A stretch of DNA of 19,618 nt from a virus (Duplodnaviria; Heunggongvirae; Uroviricota; Caudoviricetes), in the IMG/VR virus record IMGVR_UViG_2526164630_000049; one strand, given 5' to 3'. Positions 385-15,127 of this stretch are shown in pieces (within the stretch, counting starts at the first letter, position 1; each line of letters starts with the position of its first letter). Below the pieces are notes generated by a model. The model was not told the origin of the DNA. It saw only the letters and a list, made by a program, of their open reading frames with translations, and made no database searches. The position numbers were made by a program, and so were the translations under genes.

Positions 385-1608
385 ATGGCGCTGTCTGATG
401 CGTGGTTGCGTTCAGTCGTTGGAAAGGAACGTGATAAGGTTTTGGTTAAATCCGATCGTGATGGTCTGTCTGTCAGAGTATCACCGAAAGGTCGCGTAGT
501 ATTCCAATATCGTTATCAATGGGCAGGGAAAGGTGAGCGTCTTGATATCGGAACTTACCCGGCAACTGGATTAAAAGAGGCCAGAGAAGAAGTTATCCGT
601 CTTCGTGGTGAACTCGAGTCAAACCGCAATCCACGATTGGTCAAGCAGGTAGAAAAACGCAAAGCTACTGAAGCCATGACGGTGGAGTCTGTGATCCGTG
701 CCTGGTATGCAGCATATTGTGTAAAAAATAAAAAAGGTTCTGAGCAGATACTCCGCTCATTTGAACTGCACCTGTTCTCTAAAATCGGGAGTATCCCTCA
801 CGATGTAGCTACATTGCATGATTGGTTAGAGGTCCTGGAGCCTCTTAGCACTAAGACTCCAGCAATAGCAGACCGATTGCTAATTAACGCAAAGCAGGCC
901 CATGTCTGGGCGTATAAGAGAAAGCTCATTGAAACTCGCCCGCTGTCGGATATCACGGGTAAAGATATGGATATCCGTAAAGGTCAGAAGAAACGGTTTC
1001 TGACACATGATGAAATTAAAATCCTTTATGCTGCGATCGATGGTTCTCGAATGGTTCCTAAATACCGGGCCTTCATTAAACTATTGCTGCATTTTGGTTG
1101 CCGTAGTTCAGAGCTAATTACTGCCCGGGTGGACGATTTTGATTTCATTAATAAAGTATGGACTGTACCACCAGAACGACATAAGACTGGGGAGATAACA
1201 GGCGAACCGCTAAAGCGACCCATTATTGAACCGGTTGAAGAGCTTATAAAGTACGCTATCTCTATGAACAATGGTTCCGATATGCTTTTTACTAAGGAAG
1301 GAAGCAGGGAACCCGTTGGTCGGACATCATTGCAGTCGCTGCCTTACAATTTAATGCAGTACGCATGGCGGCGTTTGGGGTATCAATTCCCTCATTGGTC
1401 TCTTCATGATTTGAGACGAACAGCACGAACAAACTTTTCTGATCTTACTGAGCCTCATATTGCAGAAATAATGCTAGGTCATAAACTGCCAGGGGTATGG
1501 CAAGTTTATGATAAGAGCGATTATCTAGAAGAACAGCGTAAAGCCTACCAGGCATGGTGGGAGAGAGTTGAATCGATTGTTACTTGTACTAACTCATGCT
1601 CCAATTGA
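385..1608 (+). CDS. int: Phage tyrosine integrase (site-specific recombinase)
   Basis: 407-aa ORF adjacent to the att junction. N-terminal arm-binding-like segment (VRVSPKGRVVFQYRY); C-terminal catalytic region with LHDLRRTARTN, LGH and a terminal Tyr region (VYDKSDY), consistent with the R-H-R-Y tyrosine recombinase signature. Confidence 0.9.
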   Translation: MALSDAWLRSVVGKERDKVLVKSDRDGLSVRVSPKGRVVFQYRYQWAGKGERLDIGTYPATGLKEAREEVIRLRGELESNRNPRLVKQVEKRKATEAMTVESVIRAWYAAYCVKNKKGSEQILRSFELHLFSKIGSIPHDVATLHDWLEVLEPLSTKTPAIADRLLINAKQAHVWAYKRKLIETRPLSDITGKDMDIRKGQKKRFLTHDEIKILYAAIDGSRMVPKYRAFIKLLLHFGCRSSELITARVDDFDFINKVWTVPPERHKTGEITGEPLKRPIIEPVEELIKYAISMNNGSDMLFTKEGSREPVGRTSLQSLPYNLMQYAWRRLGYQFPHWSLHDLRRTARTNFSDLTEPHIAEIMLGHKLPGVWQVYDKSDYLEEQRKAYQAWWERVESIVTCTNSCSN

Positions 1609-1640
1609 TACAGTATGCCCAGCCAGTATGTAATCAAATT

Positions 1641-1690
1641 TGGCAGCCTGCTTTGAGCGTAAAGCGAGAGCTGCCATTATTCTTATATTT
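1641..1690 (+). terminator. Possible intrinsic terminator downstream of int
   Basis: Inverted repeat TGGCAGC (1641-1647) / GCTGCCA (1670-1676) followed by a T-rich tract (TTATTCTTATATTT). The loop is long, so this is weak. Confidence 0.3.
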
Positions 1691-1779
1691 GAACGCTATA
1701 CGATTAACTTTTTGACTGATAGATCAACTGGGTTCAGGATACCACCTGCAATATAAGCAGGTGATGGATAAATATATCA

Positions 1780-2346
1780 TTATTGGTCAGGATATTTTGA
1801 TAGTTCAACTTCAAAAGTTGAATTTTTGTTTTTTAGAACATGATCAACACCTGTATAAAGTTGCCGTAATTTATTTACTGCATTTATATCAATGGAAGCA
1901 GGGGAGAATGCTCGGATAAGATTGTTGAAGATTTCCTTGGAGTAAGCAGATTTCTTCTTTTTATCAAGAGAGTCCATTCTTTTAATAATGATTTCTAAAA
2001 GATATGTCTTTTGATTGTTATGCATTTTTTCTGAAGTAATAATCAGATACATCATTTCCCCCAAGGTTTTAGAGGCAAAGAACTCTGGAGATTGCTCTTT
2101 ATCTTCTGTTGTCCAGTTATCATAATTGAGGTGTTCTGTTGCTCCTGCCCATATATTACAACGGCTGATTAGCTCATATATTAAATAATCAAATCGCATG
2201 GGGAACTCTCTATTTACATCTATGCTGCTAGATTTTTCATAGCTCTCAAGTATTTCCTTTAGGAAACAACGATAATACATGAGCCACATATTGTTTTTTG
2301 AGCGTTTGAATATTGCTGTAGATACCATAACATCGAAAAACGTCAA
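1780..2346 (-). CDS. Hypothetical protein, downstream partner of the membrane protein in an AT-rich cargo module
   Basis: 188-aa ORF (TTG at 2346; first ATG at 2328 gives 182 aa). Its start overlaps the stop of the upstream ORF by 4 nt. No motif I recognise. Long open frame in AT-rich DNA. Confidence 0.55.
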   Translation of the reverse strand: MTFFDVMVSTAIFKRSKNNMWLMYYRCFLKEILESYEKSSSIDVNREFPMRFDYLIYELISRCNIWAGATEHLNYDNWTTEDKEQSPEFFASKTLGEMMYLIITSEKMHNNQKTYLLEIIIKRMDSLDKKKKSAYSKEIFNNLIRAFSPASIDINAVNKLRQLYTGVDHVLKNKNSTFEVELSKYPDQ

Positions 2347-3332
2347 TCCAACGAAGATTGGGCATTCCCAACGCTCATCACTACTTGAATAGTAATTATC
2401 TGGATGATTGTAAAAGCAAGAACTCCCTTTTTGTTTTTTATGTAGCTAATGACATAATTACCCACAGGTTTCCATATTTCTAAATCTATCGCCATGCGAA
2501 TATCATTTAAATAAAAATTAAGCAAGGCATTACTTTCGTCGAGTGCATACTCCCCTGTATATGAACGATTTTGGTTGTCTCGTAACTCCCTATACATAAT
2601 GCTGTTTGGGTTAGATATTAAATACGTAAAGAAATTTGTATTATACTCACAATTATATCTAAGCTGTAAGCAGGTGGCCTTCATAGCTACGTGAGGGTAA
2701 GTATCAATTAGATAATGTGAAAAAACCTTTGATTTCAGAAGATTGGATATATTTAATTGAATATCATTTTGTCTTTTGTCTTCATAAGGGAAAAACTTTG
2801 ACAGAAATCTCCTGACTTTTTTGAATCGTAATTTTTTTACCTTCTCTTCATCCATTTCAATGGGAGATAATGAAGGGGCTAAGTAATTATGTACGCGAAC
2901 ATACCATTTTTTATTGCTGATTATATTGAATAGCTGCTCGTGATATTTATCAAAAAGATATCCTAGTTGTTCTATTTTTTTTGCGCGCAGATATGTTTCT
3001 GAAACACTGATCCAACAGGTAAGGTTTGCTTTTGGTAGTATTTTGCCCTGTACTTTAATTCCAAAAAATATAATTATGATACAAAGACAAGTAAAAGCCA
3101 ATGTATCTTCGTTAAAACCGAGTATCCAAGGGATCGGTTTTATCGGGAAAACACTTAGCAAAACCTTAGAATATATAACTGTTAATATTGTTGATATAAA
3201 AAAGATAATGAATACTAAATTAAATTTAGATATGCGTAACCTTAAATCAACACGTCTCTCATCCGTTAAGAGAGTATACCAAGCAATAAGTATGGCGAAG
3301 ACTGCTAGTAAACCATTGGCACCCATTATCAC
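2343..3332 (-). CDS. Hypothetical integral membrane protein (about 3 N-terminal TM helices plus a C-terminal hydrophobic segment)
   Basis: 329-aa ORF in very AT-rich DNA. Hydrophobic stretches LLAVFAILIAWYTLL, FNLVFIIFFISTILTVIY, LAFTCLCIIIIFFGI and C-terminal GVLAFTIIQIITIQVVM. No recognisable catalytic motif. Confidence 0.6.
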   Translation of the reverse strand: MIMGANGLLAVFAILIAWYTLLTDERRVDLRLRISKFNLVFIIFFISTILTVIYSKVLLSVFPIKPIPWILGFNEDTLAFTCLCIIIIFFGIKVQGKILPKANLTCWISVSETYLRAKKIEQLGYLFDKYHEQLFNIISNKKWYVRVHNYLAPSLSPIEMDEEKVKKLRFKKVRRFLSKFFPYEDKRQNDIQLNISNLLKSKVFSHYLIDTYPHVAMKATCLQLRYNCEYNTNFFTYLISNPNSIMYRELRDNQNRSYTGEYALDESNALLNFYLNDIRMAIDLEIWKPVGNYVISYIKNKKGVLAFTIIQIITIQVVMSVGNAQSSLD

Positions 3333-3558
3333 CTCTGAATAAGCTACATTTAGACATTCATAAAAAACTTTAATACTATGTACTTATTGTAACAAATTCT
3401 GGGTGTTTTCATCAGAATTATCTGCATCATCCTGCACCATTAATTTTGGTGCTTCGCTGGTGGTATTTGCAACATCTACTTCAGGCACAGAGTAGACAGT
3501 CTGATTAGGTTTAGCTCTGTGCCATAGATGTGTTAACTCACATCTGAACGAATACGTA

Positions 3559-8948: not shown

Positions 8949-9166
8949 GGCTGAACTCCTGAAAATGGCTGTGAAAATATCGCCCGCGAAATGCCAGGCT
9001 GATTAGGAAAACAGGAAAGGGGGTAGTGAATGCTTTTGCTTGATCTCAGTTTCTGTATTAATATCCATTTTTTATAAGCGTCGACGGCTTCACGAAACAT
9101 CTTTTCATCGCCAATAAAAGTGGCGATAGTGAATTTAGTCTGGATAGCCATAAGTGTTTTATCCAT
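8945..9166 (-). CDS. kil: Kil-like host cell-division inhibitor
   Basis: The ATG at 9166 (SD AGGAG upstream) begins [43 protein letters not shown], which matches lambda Kil. The frame stays open to 8945 (73 aa), longer than I recall for lambda Kil, so the true stop is uncertain. Confidence 0.6.
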
Positions 9167-9299
9167 TTTTTGGAACTCCTGGCTGATTAAGTATGTCGAT
9201 AAGGCGTTTCCATCCGTCACGTAATTTACGGGTGATTCGCTCAAGTAAAGATTCGGAAGGGCAGCCAGCAACAGGCCACCCTGCAATGGCATATTGCAT
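9159..9299 (-). CDS. cIII: CIII (FtsH inhibitor)
   Basis: The ATG at 9299 (SD AAGGAG) begins [46 protein letters not shown], near-identical to lambda CIII. 46 aa here. Confidence 0.8.
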   Translation of the reverse strand: MQYAIAGWPVAGCPSESLLERITRKLRDGWKRLIDILNQPGVPKNG

Positions 9300-9360
9300 G
9301 GTGTGCTCCTTATTTATACATAACGAAAAACGCCTCGAGTGAAGCGTTATTGGTATGCAT

Positions 9361-9490: not shown

Positions 9491-9961
9491 CTAATAAAAT
9501 ACCCAATTTTCTGTTTCTTGGTTGTGTCCAAAGTTATATTCAATATCTGGTATTGATGTATCAATATTCTTCATCCCATCAACAAGAGTTGATACAACAG
9601 CCAAATCTTGTTTGATTCTCATTAAATGGTATTTCTTCCGGCGCAATAAACTTTCAATGGCAAGTTTCTTCGTTGGGAATGCAAAAGATCTTTCTGCATT
9701 TTTTGCTACTTTCTTAATTGCATATCTATTTCTCTTTTGTTTCCATTCCTGTAACCACTGATTTGGTGCTGGTTTAAAATTAACAATCCAATGCGCAGGA
9801 ACCAACCATGCATAATGCTCTGTCTGATGAAAAGCTATATATTGAAGTGCGAATATTTTTATCCCATCTTCTTCAACTGTCGCCTGGAATCTCCAGAAAA
9901 CAGGCATTCCATCATGTTCAGTTTCTGATTCAGGAAAAGGTACGCTCCATGATTTTGTCAT
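9491..9961 (-). CDS. Hypothetical basic protein at the ral/sieB-equivalent position between N and cIII
   Basis: 156-aa ORF in AT-rich DNA, immediately downstream of N. Basic C-terminal half (KQKRNRYAIKKVAKNAERSFAFPTKKLAIESLLRRKKYHLMRIKQD). No recognised motif. Confidence 0.55.
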   Translation of the reverse strand: MTKSWSVPFPESETEHDGMPVFWRFQATVEEDGIKIFALQYIAFHQTEHYAWLVPAHWIVNFKPAPNQWLQEWKQKRNRYAIKKVAKNAERSFAFPTKKLAIESLLRRKKYHLMRIKQDLAVVSTLVDGMKNIDTSIPDIEYNFGHNQETENWVFY

Positions 9962-10865: not shown

Positions 10866-10892
10866 CAAAGAAAACCCGGCGCTGAGGCCGGG
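10866..10892 (-). terminator. Intrinsic terminator ending the cI-stk immunity operon
   Basis: Minus strand reads CCCGGC-CTCAGC-GCCGGG followed by TTTTCTTTG (plus-strand hairpin 10875-10892), directly after the stop of the small ORF at 10893. Confidence 0.6.
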
Positions 10893-11057
10893 CTAGATTT
10901 TAAAGTATTTATCTTTTAGAGATGTAGATGTAAAACTTTTCGCCTTTGAAAATTTTTTGTCATCAGAAGGACTTATGAACTCATCTTTTTTGTAGGGAAC
11001 CGCTAATGCTGCATCACGTCTGCGAGGCAGCTTGCTTACTTCCTCGCGCTTTTTCAT
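10893..11057 (-). CDS. Small lysine-rich protein translationally coupled to stk
   Basis: Not in the ORF track (54 aa). ATG at 11057 lies 2 nt after the stk stop (TGA-TC-ATG). Translation MKKREEVSKLPRRRDAALAVPYKKDEFISPSDDKKFSKAKSFTSTSLKDKYFKI. Its stop abuts the terminator hairpin. Confidence 0.4.
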   Translation of the reverse strand: MKKREEVSKLPRRRDAALAVPYKKDEFISPSDDKKFSKAKSFTSTSLKDKYFKI

Positions 11058-11059
11058 GA

Positions 11060-12106
11060 TCAGTTATCCTTTAATAACCTATACAGTTTTGTAGGGGTAC
11101 ATCCTGAGGATATTGTTAAGTTCGTAGCACGCCTTTTCCGCCCATCATCGTATAAACGAAAACCAGTAGTAGACGAATTTTCTGCGTCAAAAACTATAGA
11201 CAGTATAGCGTCCCCAGACTTTTTTTGCCATTCGCATGTGCCGTTAGTTGGTTTCGTCATCTGTAGACGCCAGTCAAGAACGCCATCACTTATAGCTGAG
11301 AGATCGTTTAGTACATCTAGTACGGATTGATATCTTTCATTTGGATCTACATGAATGCATTTGTTCACTATTGTTATTAATTTTTTATGTATATGGGGAG
11401 GATACTCTTTTAATGGATAGCAGCCATTAATTATCGACTCTCTGAGTTGTTCAATCGTGCTAAATGCAGATCTTTCTCTTTCAAAATTATCATGTCCAAC
11501 ACACATTCTATATATGGTTAATCCTGCCTGATATATGTCATATGTGAAATTATAATCATTTGTTGATAAAGAAAAATATTCCGGTGGCACATGAAAATGA
11601 TATCCAAACTCAGGCGCAGCTCTCGATTCCTCATTGACTAACTGAGATAATCCAAAGTCAGATAGCATGGCCTCATTTCTGTTTGATATCATAATGTTAT
11701 TAGGTTTTATATCAAAATGCATAAGACCTTTTGAGTGTATATGATAAAGTCCACTTAAAAATTGAATGGAATACCGTATTATCTCCCTGCTTGTAAGATT
11801 ATTTTTTTTCATTAATTGGTTTAGCGAACCATTATGATAAAATGGCATGGCTATATAGATATTGCTCTCACATTGAGCAGCATACTGAACTTGCACAATA
11901 TTTGGATGTGCATGTTTATAGAGAAGCCTTGCTTCATTAAAGTAGTCGTCGTGGTTAGTGTTTTCTTTTTTTTCTATTTCTTTAATCACCAAGTCATGAG
12001 CTAGGTGTCTGTCATGAGCCAGATATACTTTTGAAAAACAACCCTGTTCTTCTAGATCACTAATCCATTCGAATTCTACATCAGCTCTTTTGTATGGAGT
12101 TAGCAT
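11060..12106 (-). CDS. stk: Eukaryotic-like protein kinase (Stk-like, Hanks-type)
   Basis: 348 aa with a lysine-containing beta3-like LVIKEIEK, catalytic loop HFDIKPNN, DFG motif (LSDFGLS) and PPE. AT-rich. Sits between cI and N, where 933W carries stk (from memory). Confidence 0.85.
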   Translation of the reverse strand: MLTPYKRADVEFEWISDLEEQGCFSKVYLAHDRHLAHDLVIKEIEKKENTNHDDYFNEARLLYKHAHPNIVQVQYAAQCESNIYIAMPFYHNGSLNQLMKKNNLTSREIIRYSIQFLSGLYHIHSKGLMHFDIKPNNIMISNRNEAMLSDFGLSQLVNEESRAAPEFGYHFHVPPEYFSLSTNDYNFTYDIYQAGLTIYRMCVGHDNFERERSAFSTIEQLRESIINGCYPLKEYPPHIHKKLITIVNKCIHVDPNERYQSVLDVLNDLSAISDGVLDWRLQMTKPTNGTCEWQKKSGDAILSIVFDAENSSTTGFRLYDDGRKRRATNLTISSGCTPTKLYRLLKDN

Positions 12107-12348
12107 CCCCTTACCTCCGCAGATAGTGCAGCCAAAACAGCTTCATTTGTTTCAGTTGTAAAACCAGAATTATCGATTCCATTTATATTGCGGTGTGACT
12201 TCAATATTTCTTTATACTCGATCTCTGTTAGGTTCAATGATGATTTCATGCCAGATTTTCTAATAGTGTAATATTTTCTTACATCACTGCTTGAAAATGC
12301 TTCTTGAATAACAGCTTCTATATAAAGGCGGTCAATGCTAAGATTATC
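12100..12348 (-). pseudogene. 3' portion of the first gene of the stk operon, separated from its 5' portion by the IS629 insertion
   Basis: Reading frame is continuous with 13659-13874 across the IS and the 3-bp target duplication. Track ORF 12100-12441 borrows a TTG start inside the IS left end. Reconstructed protein is about 153 aa. Confidence 0.6.
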
Positions 12349-12402
12349 TGAACCGCCCCGGGAATCCTGGAGACTAAACTCCCTGAGAAAGAGGTAAACA
12401 GG

Positions 12403-12729
12403 ATGACTAAAAATACACGTTTTTCCCCCGAGGTCCGTCAACGGGCAGTTCGTATGGTTCTGGAAAGTCAGGGCGAATATGACTCACAATGGGCGGCAAT
12501 TTGTTCCATTGCCCCAAAGATTGGCTGTACACCAGAGACTCTGCGTGTGTGGGTTCGTCAGCATGAGCGGGATACCGGGAGTGGTGATGGTGGACTCACC
12601 ACCGCTGAACGTCAGCGTCTGAAAGAGCTGGAACGTGAAAATCGTGAACTGCGCCGCAGTAACGATATCCTTCGCCAGGCTTCCGCTTATTTTGCGAAGG
12701 CGGAGTTCGACCGCCTCTGGAAAAAATAA
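12403..12729 (+). CDS. IS3-family transposase OrfA (HTH and leucine-zipper region)
   Basis: 108 aa ([33 protein letters not shown]...); coiled-coil [17 protein letters not shown] typical of IS3 OrfA. Confidence 0.85.
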
Positions 12730-13616
12730 TGCCGCTGCTGGATAAGCTGCGTGAGCAGTACGGGGTCGGACCGGTATGCAGTGAACTGCATATTGCCCCG
12801 TCAACGTATTACCACTGTCAGCAACAGCGACATCATCCTGATAAACGCAGTGCCCGTGCTCAGCGCGATGACTGGCTGAAGAGAGAGATACAGCGCGTAT
12901 ACGATGAAAATCATCAGGTGTACGGTGTGCGTAAAGTCTGGCGCCAGTTGTTACGCGAAGGTATCAGGGTGGCCAGATGTACAGTGGCGCGCCTCATGGC
13001 GGTTATGGGACTTGCCGGTGTTCTCCGGGGTAAAAAGGTCCGTACTACCGTCAGCCGGAAAGCCGTTTCCGCAGGCGACCGCGTAAACCGTCAGTTCGTG
13101 GCAGAACGTCCTGACCAGCTGTGGGTGGCTGATTTTACTTACGTCAGCACATGGCAGGGCTTCGTCTATGTGGCGTTCATCATTGATGTGTTTGCCGGAT
13201 GTATCGTGGGGTGGCGAGTCTCATCGTCTATGGAAACGACATTCGTGCTGGATGCACTGGAGCAGGCGTTGTGGGCCCGTCGGCCGTCCGGCACAGTCCA
13301 TCACAGTGATAAAGGTTCTCAGTATGTATCACTGGCCTATACGGAGCGACTAAAAGAAGCAAAACTGCTGGCATCAACAGGGAGTACAGGTGACTCGTAT
13401 GACAACGCGATGGCGGAGAGCATCAATGGTCTTTACAAAGCGGAGGTAATACACCGTAAGAGCTGGAAAAACCGTGCAGAAGTGGAACTGGCCACACTCA
13501 CGTGGGTGGACTGGTATAACAATCGACGATTGCTGGGAAGGCTGGGTCATATCCCTCCGGCAGAAGCAGAAAAAGCTTATTATGCTTCCATCAGAAACGA
13601 TGATCTGGCAGCCTGA
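12729..13616 (+). CDS. IS3-family transposase OrfB (DDE integrase core)
   Basis: 295 aa; DDE-type catalytic core (WVADFTYV ... HHSDKGSQY ... DNAMAESINGLYKAE). Start overlaps the orfA stop, the usual frameshift arrangement. Confidence 0.85.
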   Translation: MPLLDKLREQYGVGPVCSELHIAPSTYYHCQQQRHHPDKRSARAQRDDWLKREIQRVYDENHQVYGVRKVWRQLLREGIRVARCTVARLMAVMGLAGVLRGKKVRTTVSRKAVSAGDRVNRQFVAERPDQLWVADFTYVSTWQGFVYVAFIIDVFAGCIVGWRVSSSMETTFVLDALEQALWARRPSGTVHHSDKGSQYVSLAYTERLKEAKLLASTGSTGDSYDNAMAESINGLYKAEVIHRKSWKNRAEVELATLTWVDWYNNRRLLGRLGHIPPAEAEKAYYASIRNDDLAA

Positions 13617-13658
13617 GTTCACAGATAAAACACTCTCCAGGAAAACCGGGGCGGTTCA

Positions 13659-13874
13659 ATCAGAGTTTGATTCAGTAACGCGTATGGCAGCTAATTCAAC
13701 ATTATATAAATTAAGAATGTCGAGGATGTTATTTCTCACATACTTTAATTTTTCTGGTGTGTCTAAGGTCGAAGGTATTTTAATAACATCAACACATTTG
13801 AGTGCAGACTCATTAGTGCAATATACAACAAAAGATGTAACTTTGGGCGCCGCTCTAACACCTAGTATTCTCAT
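13659..13874 (-). pseudogene. 5' portion of the first gene of the stk operon, interrupted by IS629
   Basis: ATG at 13874 (MRILGVRAAPKVTSFVVYCTNESALK...); the ORF runs into the IS right end, and its last sense codon is the ATC target duplication. Confidence 0.6.
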
Positions 13875-13941
13875 TTTTTATATCCTATTTTAGAATCAGG
13901 CCGCATCTCTGCGACCATCCATCATCCAAACGTCTCTTCAC

Positions 13942-14282
13942 TCATCCGAAGAAGCAGCAATCCGGGTCAGCACGCACAAGCTCAAGCGCATCAGTCAGCG
14001 AAAGTTCAGTACTGTACTGATGCCATTTCATATCCTTCCGCATCCAATAGATTTTCCATCTATCCAGAGAACGTATGTACTTGATTCTTGCTGATGGCAG
14101 GATGTTTGTTTCACCTGGATTGCCCTGCCACACGGGCGCTGTTCGCCGATATCTATCGTTTGGTCATTGATGCTATAAACAATATCCAGTTCATTGCGGA
14201 TATGTTCAGGCGGCCTTATGCTTTCAATGAATTGGTGAACTTCTTTTTTTACTGCTTGATATTCAAGGTCATTGAACGCCAT
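13942..14282 (-). pseudogene. Hypothetical gene downstream of cI, apparently frameshifted
   Basis: Two overlapping track ORFs (14028-14282 and 13942-14133) in frames differing by 1. The N-terminal part of one and the C-terminal part of the other look protein-like. The span is 341 nt, i.e. 3n-1. Confidence 0.35.
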
Positions 14283-14342
14283 CTATCCTCCTTACCCAAA
14301 CGTCTCTTCAGGCCACTGGTTACCAGCTATGTGACGATGAAG

Positions 14343-15049
14343 TCACGAACTTTTCAGCCACTCCCTTGCCTCGATGTCATCCAGATGGCGAGATTGCTTC
14401 AGAATACCAGCTACATACTCCACCTTTGCTACTTGATGATAAGGCAACGTTATAGGCCTGTGATCCTGGTTAATGCTTGTAAATTGGTATTCTCCATCTC
14501 TGTCATAGCCAAGAACCTTAATCATGTTGTGTCCTTCAACGGTTCTGACAAACACCTCATCACCCGGGAATACTTTGGTGTTAGGCTCAATGAGTACATA
14601 TTCTCCTGATTTTATTCTGGGCCACATGCTGTCTCCTTTCACACGAAGACCAAAGGCATCTGGATCATCGCTATAAATTTTGAGCCACCCATCGCGCTCT
14701 TCGGTCATCTCGATGGCACCATCAACACCAAGAATTGCCTCACCAACCACGCGCACTAACCCTTTTTTAATTTGCCAACAAATGAAAGAGTATCTTCATC
14801 ATTCGCTCCATTTAACGAAGTGCCGTGCTGAAGCCAAACAACATCAACGTTTAGAAATTTCGCAAGCGCATTCATTTTTTCCTGACGCGGTAAAGACTCA
14901 GCATTAAACCATTTGCTAACGCCTTTGGACGAAAGAGAAAGGGCACGGGCTATAGCCATTCCCCTACCATGTTCATCAAGACCAGCTTCTTTACAGGCTT
15001 GCGCTAGCCGCTGGGCGAATTCTTTGCGCACTTTTTCATTCTGAACCAT
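14343..15049 (-). pseudogene. cI: CI-type repressor split by a 1-nt frameshift into an N-terminal HTH ORF (14756-15049) and a C-terminal S24-peptidase ORF (14343-14756)
   Basis: N-terminal ORF ends ...FVGKLKKG-stop; the C-terminal ORF (GTG start) carries the LexA/S24-like GDSMWPRIKSGEYVLIEP motif. The junction lies in an A6G3 run (plus 14759-14767); one extra A or G would give a single 235-aa ORF. The span is 707 nt, i.e. 3n-1. Confidence 0.65.
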
Positions 15050-15127
15050 GAGTACGATACTAAAGCACTTGCAAAAACTTTCAGTTCAACCATAATACGT
15101 ACTGAAAGTACGAAAAAGGATATTCCT
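15050..15127. promoter_or_regulatory. oR/pR/pRM region between divergent cI and cro
   Basis: 15-bp palindrome CGTACT-GAA-AGTACG (15098-15112). Related half-sites ACTTTCAGT (15078-15086) and AGTACGATACT (15051-15061) suggest three operators. Candidate pR: -35 TTGCAA (15069-15074) and -10 CATAAT (15091-15096). Confidence 0.55.

Follow-up and report, generated by a model that had tools for sequence, protein, structure and literature searches.

The stk kinase gene of a 933W-like prophage appears to belong to a conserved three-gene cassette, here interrupted by an IS629-group element

The immunity region of IMG/VR virus record IMGVR_UViG_2526164630_000049, a 19,618-nt stretch of Caudoviricetes DNA referred to below as the window, carries on its minus strand an intact gene for a eukaryotic-like protein kinase, stk, lying between a gene split by an insertion sequence (IS) and a short basic open reading frame (ORF). 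This arrangement, at positions 10866-13874, raises the question of whether the kinase works alone or together with its two neighbours, and of what the IS has done to the locus. The explanation that we favour, and consider likely, is that L0083, stk and L0081, as the three genes are called in phage 933W, form a self-contained, mobile, kinase-based abortive-infection cassette within the 933W pRM operon, probably crippled here by the IS.

Outside the IS, the immunity region of the window is 99.8-99.9% identical in DNA to phage 933W and to many Shiga toxin (Stx) phages. At the protein level, Stk, L0081 and L0083 rebuilt without the IS are each 100% identical to their 933W counterparts. The 933W record has the order cI, L0084 (a DUF3024 gene), L0083, stk, L0081 and terminator tM, with pRM upstream of cI; gene order and terminator in the window agree with it, although the transcription unit is here interrupted by the IS. 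Judged by this correspondence, the locus is the accessory part of the 933W lysogenic (pRM) operon. The two versions differ by a 1310-bp IS in L0083 and by 1-nt indels in L0084 and cI. We refer to L0083, stk and L0081 as genes A, B and C where their order matters. The features of the locus are listed below.

10873-10894, minus strand: intrinsic terminator tM, the end of the pRM transcript (terminator scan: 8-bp stem with 6 GC pairs and a T-run; corresponds to the annotated 933W tM)
10893-11057, minus strand: L0081 (gene C), 54 aa (100% identity to 933W L0081; phrog_4063)
11060-12106, minus strand: stk (gene B), a 348-aa Hanks-type kinase (Pfam Pkinase, E = 2e-46; 100% identity to 933W Stk)
12100-12348, minus strand: 3' fragment of L0083 (gene A), codons 72/73-153 and the stop (sequence reading and reconstruction)
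12349-13658, plus strand: IS3-family element of the IS629/IS1203 group, 1310 bp (HTH_Tnp_1, rve, ends, target duplication, Rfam RF01497)
13659-13874, minus strand: 5' fragment of L0083 (gene A), codons 1-72 (ORF listing, sequence reading and reconstruction)

The first-pass annotation, made from the letters of the DNA and a list of ORFs, had described a minus-strand, AT-rich operon in a rexAB-like niche, whose first gene, of about 153 aa once the IS is removed, overlaps the start of an intact 348-aa Hanks-type kinase that is followed 2 nt later by a 54-aa basic ORF ending at a terminator. This description holds up well. The operon without the IS has a GC content of 37%, compared with 45% for the whole window and 53% for the IS, and its gene order and terminator tM match those of 933W. 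Excision of the IS together with one copy of its flanking repeat yields an intact L0083 of 153 aa, exactly the 933W protein. The end of L0083 overlaps the start of stk by 7 nt (ATGCTAA), and the stk stop codon, TGA, is followed by the letters tc and then by the ATG of L0081, leaving the 2-nt gap. The terminator hairpin begins at the stop codon of the small ORF.

The kinase motifs reported from the sequence, HFDIKPNN, DFG and PPE, are all found in Stk, and the proposal that the protein is a Stk of the 933W type is borne out by alignment, with 348 of 348 residues identical. The first-pass annotation had made its case depend on the conservation of the catalytic residues. Across 41 Stk homologues of 39-86% identity, residues K42, E58, H130/D132/K134/N137, D150-F-G, P175-E176 and R258 are invariant, making up a complete Hanks-type core (VAIK Lys, alphaC Glu, HxD...N, DFG, APE and subdomain XI Arg). 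Because all of the catalytic residues are invariant in this set, we judge Stk to be catalytically competent. The arginine of the HRD motif is replaced (HFD), and Stk is therefore of the non-RD type, a class associated with eukaryotic innate-immune receptors. A structural model of Stk (predicted local distance difference test score, pLDDT, of 89) comprises a eukaryote-like kinase domain and a C-terminal beta/alpha domain (about 70 aa; four strands, one helix) that bears the invariant residues W279 and W293. A Foldseek search with this model returned only generic eukaryote-like kinases, and no informative match was obtained for the C-terminal domain. Against PADLOC, the top match of Stk overall was mad6; PD-T4-6 models made up 22 of the 25 families listed, with a best E value of 1e-37, and matched the kinase domain only (residues 20-273).

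The locus itself is already known. Abortive exclusion of HK97 by Stk is published, and Stk is the archetypal prophage kinase defence, characterised since 2011. Its trigger in HK97 is reportedly gp0.5, a result said to come from Friedman 2011. We take the function of Stk from four papers that cite Friedman 2011 and Tyler 2004. In these, 933W Stk is described as co-transcribed with cI, as having little or no activity in uninfected lysogens, and as activated on infection by HK97, which it aborts (PMC3681748, PMC3564112, PMC6356687, PMC8008677). The first-pass statement that Stk mediates abortive exclusion of a heterologous phage is thus in line with what papers citing Friedman et al. 2011 state about HK97. 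The infection-triggered tyrosine phosphorylation and HK97 exclusion described there belong to the literature on 933W, not to the IS-bearing allele. The IS allele is strain-level variation within a small clade of Shiga toxin-producing Escherichia coli (STEC), and the window holds nothing new in kind. What is new here is that comparison across genomes suggests L0083-stk-L0081 to be a conserved three-gene cassette.

That L0083 is bound to the kinase gene emerged from both directions of search. Homologues of L0083 are widespread, and the context of an L0083-like gene followed by a kinase and, where the contig extends far enough, a small ORF recurs in Pragia, Klebsiella and Terasakiella. Starting instead from distant kinases in Pseudomonas, Acinetobacter and Elizabethkingia, we again found an L0083-like gene upstream; all three genes are present together in these genera as well as in Pragia and Klebsiella. 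For a survey from the side of gene A, 80 species-level genome loci were retrieved with an L0083-family profile, and 77 of them were evaluable; a Stk-family kinase begins at the L0083 stop in 76 of the 77. The four remaining loci of the 80 comprise three that end at a contig edge and one orphan. The 76 linked loci span gamma-, beta- and alpha-proteobacteria, Bacteroidota, a cyanobacterium and a metagenome-assembled genome (MAG) of a myxobacterium. From the side of gene B, 80 viral contigs were retrieved by their kinase, 3 of which are cut at the contig end; in all of the 77 that could be evaluated, an L0083-family gene lies immediately upstream. The stop of A and the start of B overlap or lie no more than 4 nt apart in 73/76 loci.

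The surroundings of the cassette vary from locus to locus and are of mobile-element type, including cI/ImmA-type repressors, integrases, TniQ/TnsD, methylases and HipA. The L0083 family amounts to about 450 clusters at 50% identity (451 matches among 1.84 billion representative proteins), and nearly all of the best 150 of these 451 matches are approximately 150-165 aa long. At 81% kinase identity, the ratios of nonsynonymous to synonymous substitution (dN/dS) were 0.05 for A, 0.08 for B and 0.20 for C, placing L0083 under stronger purifying selection than the kinase itself. The first-pass view of upstream gene, kinase and small ORF as one unit is in keeping with these data, in which the trio travels together across phyla. 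Taken together, the comparisons suggest that L0083-stk-L0081 is a conserved three-gene unit and that L0083 and L0081 accompany the kinase as constant partners in many bacteria.

Two observations concern the surroundings of the cassette. It adjoins TniQ/TnsD genes in four species and may there be cargo of Tn7-like transposons; other neighbours are an LlaJI restriction system and ArdA. The sole orphan among the 77 evaluable loci is in a Sphingomonas MAG (locus L095, 4001-4456), where an intact L0083-family gene adjoins thiC and has no kinase after it.

An alternative account would have Stk as a single-gene defence, comparable to PD-T4-6 and Stk2, with L0083 and L0081 as unrelated passengers and the IS mattering only through polarity on stk. 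The literature credits exclusion to Stk alone, the kinase-only PD-T4-6 models match Stk (E = 1e-37), and PADLOC has no models for the neighbours. Unrelated passengers are nevertheless hard to reconcile with near-obligate linkage (76 of 77 evaluable loci from one side and 77 of 77 from the other) across a range that runs from Enterobacterales to Bacteroidota and includes a cyanobacterium, with frames that overlap while the flanking genes change, or with purifying selection on A that exceeds that on the kinase. We regard this account as improbable, although it deserves to be kept in mind.

The cassette reading accordingly depends on what L0083 might contribute. RefSeq and PHROGs name it 'RuvC-like resolvase' or 'RuvC-like Holliday junction resolvase', a name based on fold. 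The first-pass annotation had called the roles of the flanking genes unassigned; a literature search found no experimental work on them, in agreement with that statement, but the fold-based database name means that the upstream gene was not without a label. We modelled the structure of the L0083 family on a 93%-identical Klebsiella homologue, and the model has a RuvC / RNase H-like fold. RuvC surfaced by fold comparison alone and not by sequence search: Pfam gave no domain in 75 L0083 homologues, and no RuvC match came from NCBIfam or from a search of PDB sequences with the A profile. Pfam likewise gave no match for either of the two L0083 fragments, and PADLOC and NCBIfam returned nothing meaningful for the intact protein.

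A weak profile alignment to E. coli RuvC places L0083 positions 7 and 65 on the catalytic residues D7 and E66, with which the register of the predicted strands is consistent. Position 7 is arginine in 120/121 divergent representatives, and position 65 is arginine or lysine in 121/121. The catalytic tetrad of E. coli RuvC (D7, E66, D138, D141) is therefore not reproduced in L0083, in which only the equivalent of D141 is acidic (E140); E68, E82, E87 and E140 are conserved. L0083 differs from the RuvC resolvase also in overall sequence (13% identity) and in being always found in an operon with a kinase. L0083 is most likely a non-catalytic module with a RuvC fold, and the residue pattern suggests that the resolvase name given by RefSeq and PHROGs misstates its function.

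If L0083 were instead an active nuclease of the RuvC type, it could be an effector switched on by Stk phosphorylation. The basic residues at the D7 and E66 equivalents (Arg in 120/121; Arg/Lys in 121/121) speak against this, as do the failure of RuvC sequence models to match among the Pfam results for 75 homologues, NCBIfam and PDB sequences, and the separateness of the family from RuvC in the 1.84-billion-protein search, which gave 451 matches only. The shared fold notwithstanding, we think it very doubtful that L0083 cuts DNA.

The third gene, L0081, encodes a protein of 54 aa with 12 Lys and 4 Arg residues and a pI of about 10. The first-pass annotation had taken it for unannotated, which is incorrect: it has been L0081 since the original 933W record (AAD25426 / NP_049481), is WP_000745483.1 in RefSeq and belongs to phrog_4063. 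L0081 had no match in Pfam, and PADLOC and NCBIfam returned nothing meaningful. Homologues occur in Serratia, Salmonella and Pragia. In nearly all loci of the survey, an ORF of 50-65 aa starts -3 to about +10 nt from the kinase stop. Random positions, used as a first null for such an ORF, pass in 50% of cases; we therefore relied on profile specificity and dN/dS instead. The small ORFs of non-enteric loci form a clear family with two motifs, an N-terminal one of approximately [IV]KNxxxxYxxR[SA]xL and a C-terminal one of [IV]Dxx[GF]Y[IVF]x[FW], separated by a variable basic linker. Among 6835 ORFs on both strands of all loci, a profile of this family matches post-kinase ORFs only, including members that were not used in training. 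Enteric small proteins, L0081 among them, share position, size and charge and have similar short motifs (LPRRRDAAL ... LKDKYFKI). For the enteric small ORFs, dN/dS is 0.2-0.4, a sign of purifying selection, weaker than on L0083 (0.05) and the kinase (0.08). By these measures, the small ORF downstream of the kinase is a real gene.

The rapid evolution of gene C (dN/dS 0.2-0.4), of a kind often seen in antitoxins and adaptors, is one of several points that would suit a toxin-antitoxin-like arrangement, in which the kinase is a toxin that A or C neutralises until a phage triggers it, and in which loss of A is tolerated only since the IS silences stk. Stk is described as having little or no activity in uninfected cells and as causing abortive infection once triggered; translational coupling in the operon is tight, and the kinase is perfectly intact in the IS allele. 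On the other side, A is the most conserved of the three proteins, unlike typical antitoxins, neither A nor C has a DNA-binding autoregulator domain in Pfam or NCBIfam, and we found no evidence of Stk being toxic by itself. Such an arrangement is, in our estimate, unlikely, if the most credible of the alternatives. Should A or C nonetheless inhibit the kinase, tolerance of the allele would be accounted for by the IS having shut off stk.

Within the cassette reading, the three products, made from tightly overlapping or abutting frames, would be expected to act as one complex. L0083 would most likely be a regulatory or sensor subunit that lacks catalysis, acting, for instance, as a dimeric scaffold or through binding of DNA or phosphate. 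L0081, which is short and basic and has two conserved motifs, with a conserved tyrosine in the second, would most likely serve as a tether or a (pseudo)substrate of Stk. An extended and more tentative version, which we hold at slightly worse than even chances, makes Stk the enzyme of an obligate three-protein system: a dead RuvC-fold sensor or scaffold, a non-RD Hanks kinase and a 50-65-aa basic tether or (pseudo)substrate with a C-terminal tyrosine motif, carried on prophages, Tn7-like transposons and islands in Pseudomonadota, Bacteroidota and a cyanobacterium. A system of this kind is unrecorded in PADLOC v2.0.0, and a literature search for the flanking genes, or for a kinase combined with a RuvC-like system, gave nothing relevant.

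Several points weigh against the cassette reading. The published exclusion phenotype is credited to stk alone, as is reported of the one functional study of the system; should a plasmid with only stk exclude HK97, neither A nor C would be strictly essential. Defence catalogues class similar kinases as single-gene systems (PD-T4-6), and PADLOC v2.0.0 is without models for A or C. The unity of the small proteins is also less than certain: the non-enteric profile did not match L0081 at E <= 10, and an hhalign comparison of enteric with non-enteric small proteins gave E = 0.0016 with a probability of 16%, a weak match over 15 columns. The D7 and E66 equivalences come from a weak profile alignment to a hand-entered E. 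coli RuvC sequence, together with a matching secondary-structure register. Lastly, the polarity of the IS, discussed next, is inferred.

The IS has the inverted ends TGAACCGCCCCGG and is flanked by a 3-bp direct repeat, ATC. RefSeq labels it only as 'IS3 family transposase'. It is 95.4% identical to the annotated IS629 of Stx2a_F422 and shares with IS629/IS1203 the length of 1310 bp, the ends, the 3-bp duplication, orfA and orfB with a programmed -1 frameshift, and the rve domain; at 95.4% identity it is a variant within this group. Its internal features are as follows.

12403-12729, plus strand: IS orfA, HTH_Tnp_1 (domain scan)
12729-13616, plus strand: IS orfB, rve DDE domain (domain scan)
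12684-12800, plus strand: ALIL frameshift pseudoknot of the IS (Rfam RF01497, 121 bits)

The presence of the ALIL pseudoknot suggests that the expression signal of the transposase is intact.

The element cuts L0083 after codon 72, and the reading frame of the 5' fragment is closed by a TGA formed by the outermost three bases of the IS (13656-13658). Because the IS splits the gene inside the fold, L0083 as it reads in this allele is null. On the cassette reading, insertion after codon 72 would thus remove A and at the same time part stk-L0081 from pRM by 1.3 kb. The IS should be strongly polar on stk-L0081, because the frame translated from pRM is closed at the IS boundary, beyond which the transcript would run through 1.3 kb of untranslated antisense IS sequence, with no good promoter on the way to stk. 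A promoter scan of the minus strand gave no sigma-70-like site in the interval from the IS to stk, nor a promoter-like one anywhere within 11716-14436. A candidate found by hand in the left end of the IS, TTGACG...TGTATT, was rejected as too weak. The cassette of the IS allele is probably defective, with B and C still intact.

It is conceivable that the IS rewires the operon rather than inactivating it, an IS-borne or hybrid promoter driving stk-L0081 independently of the repressor promoter. IS3-family elements can create hybrid promoters, and a chimeric ORF of 113 codons (12100-12441) joins the end of the IS to the 3' portion of L0083. This ORF has a TTG start and no Shine-Dalgarno sequence, however, and the scan of 11716-14436 gave no promoter-like site on the minus strand. 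IS3-family elements carry their outward -35 box at the right end, and in this insertion that end points towards cI and away from stk. Of all the alternatives considered, this one strikes us as the least probable.

Colinear copies of the IS allele, at 99.9-100% identity, were found in 6 of 5,426 complete E. coli genomes, including that of O45:H2 strain FWSEC0003. The insertion is a recent event, restricted to a small clade: kinase and small ORF have not changed, the target duplication is still intact, and no more than six complete genomes carry the allele. If the cassette reading is true, the O45:H2 allele would be a natural knockout of the sensor subunit and a ready-made mutant for the role of the kinase's partner. 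The possibility of repeated IS targeting of L0083 was dismissed: in other Stx prophages the IS lies elsewhere and L0083 is intact. Copies of the IS629 group in related prophages were seen downstream of N, between N and L0081, next to the integrase and in kil/gam, and the early-left region thus accumulates them.

Two sets of known systems invite comparison with the proposed cassette. The single-gene kinase defences include PD-T4-6, reportedly described by Vassallo et al. in 2022, and staphylococcal Stk2, reportedly described by Depardieu et al. in 2016. Stk resembles them in being a Hanks-type kinase that serves as an anti-phage effector, and the PD-T4-6 models match its kinase domain alone. 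The Stk family departs from their stand-alone architecture, however, in having a RuvC-fold gene upstream and a small ORF downstream, both absent from the catalogue entries. Stk also differs at its C terminus, where it has a single beta/alpha domain, from the PD-T4-6 of S. thermophilus, which bears PASTA-like C-terminal modules (PMC11514479). If all three genes are needed, Stk-like kinases would be under-described in PADLOC and in the literature, and if the three-gene reading is true, the name 'RuvC-like Holliday junction resolvase' would be misleading for L0083. The family could then represent a pseudo-nuclease recruited as the regulatory subunit of an immune kinase.

The second comparison is with rexA-rexB of lambda, which occupies the same niche as the operon in the window: downstream of cI, expressed from pRM in the lysogen and ended by a terminator before pL/N. 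Rex acts through a membrane channel, whereas Stk is a protein kinase. Lambda Rex and the operon in the window are unrelated in sequence, and the likeness is one of position and function; no Rex model appeared among the PADLOC matches of the five operon proteins. Rex and Stk are alike in causing abortive exclusion of heterologous phages (PMC3564112).

Upstream in the operon lie two further genes and the promoter region.

13942-14282, minus strand: 933W L0084, a DUF3024 gene (Pfam DUF3024 on both halves; split by a 1-nt deletion at 14133)
14343-15049, minus strand: cI repressor (HTH and S24 peptidase), the first gene of the pRM operon (split by a 1-nt deletion at 14762)
15042-15096, no strand assigned: OR3 / pRM / pR region (933W annotation transferred by offset; pRM at about 15057-15084, minus strand, and pR at about 15069-15096, plus strand)

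The site at 15069-15096 was also picked up as pR-like by the promoter scan. The first-pass annotation had placed the split gene directly after cI, and this needs amending, since L0084 intervenes. Intact L0084 matches PDC-S43, a PADLOC candidate single-gene defence, over its full length (E = 4e-41), and a DUF3024 gene also precedes the cassette in Proteus penneri (locus L016). DUF3024 is not among the 25 Pfam families most often matched by neighbours at other loci, so L0084 looks like a separate passenger gene.

Compared with O45:H2 FWSEC0003 over 9.8 kb, the window shows seven single-base indels and one substitution, mostly in short base runs. The differences are at 9018, 10304, 14133, 14762, 16318, 16830, 17072 and 17141, none of them inside 10866-13874, and the genes broken are kil, N, the DUF3024 gene, cI, O and P. 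Consensus or sequencing errors probably account for the differences; if the indels were real, the prophage would be dead in regulation and replication.

Three other features were seen elsewhere in the window. A lambda cIII thermoregulator was identified with Rfam upstream of cIII (9254-9312, minus strand). Between N and an ssb-like gene lies an AT-rich ORF of 156 aa (9491-9961, minus strand), which corresponds to 933W L0079 and is annotated as a hypothetical protein. An AT-rich block at 1500-3500 (GC 0.32-0.36) contains minus-strand ORFs of 188 aa (1780-2346) and 329 aa (2343-3332).

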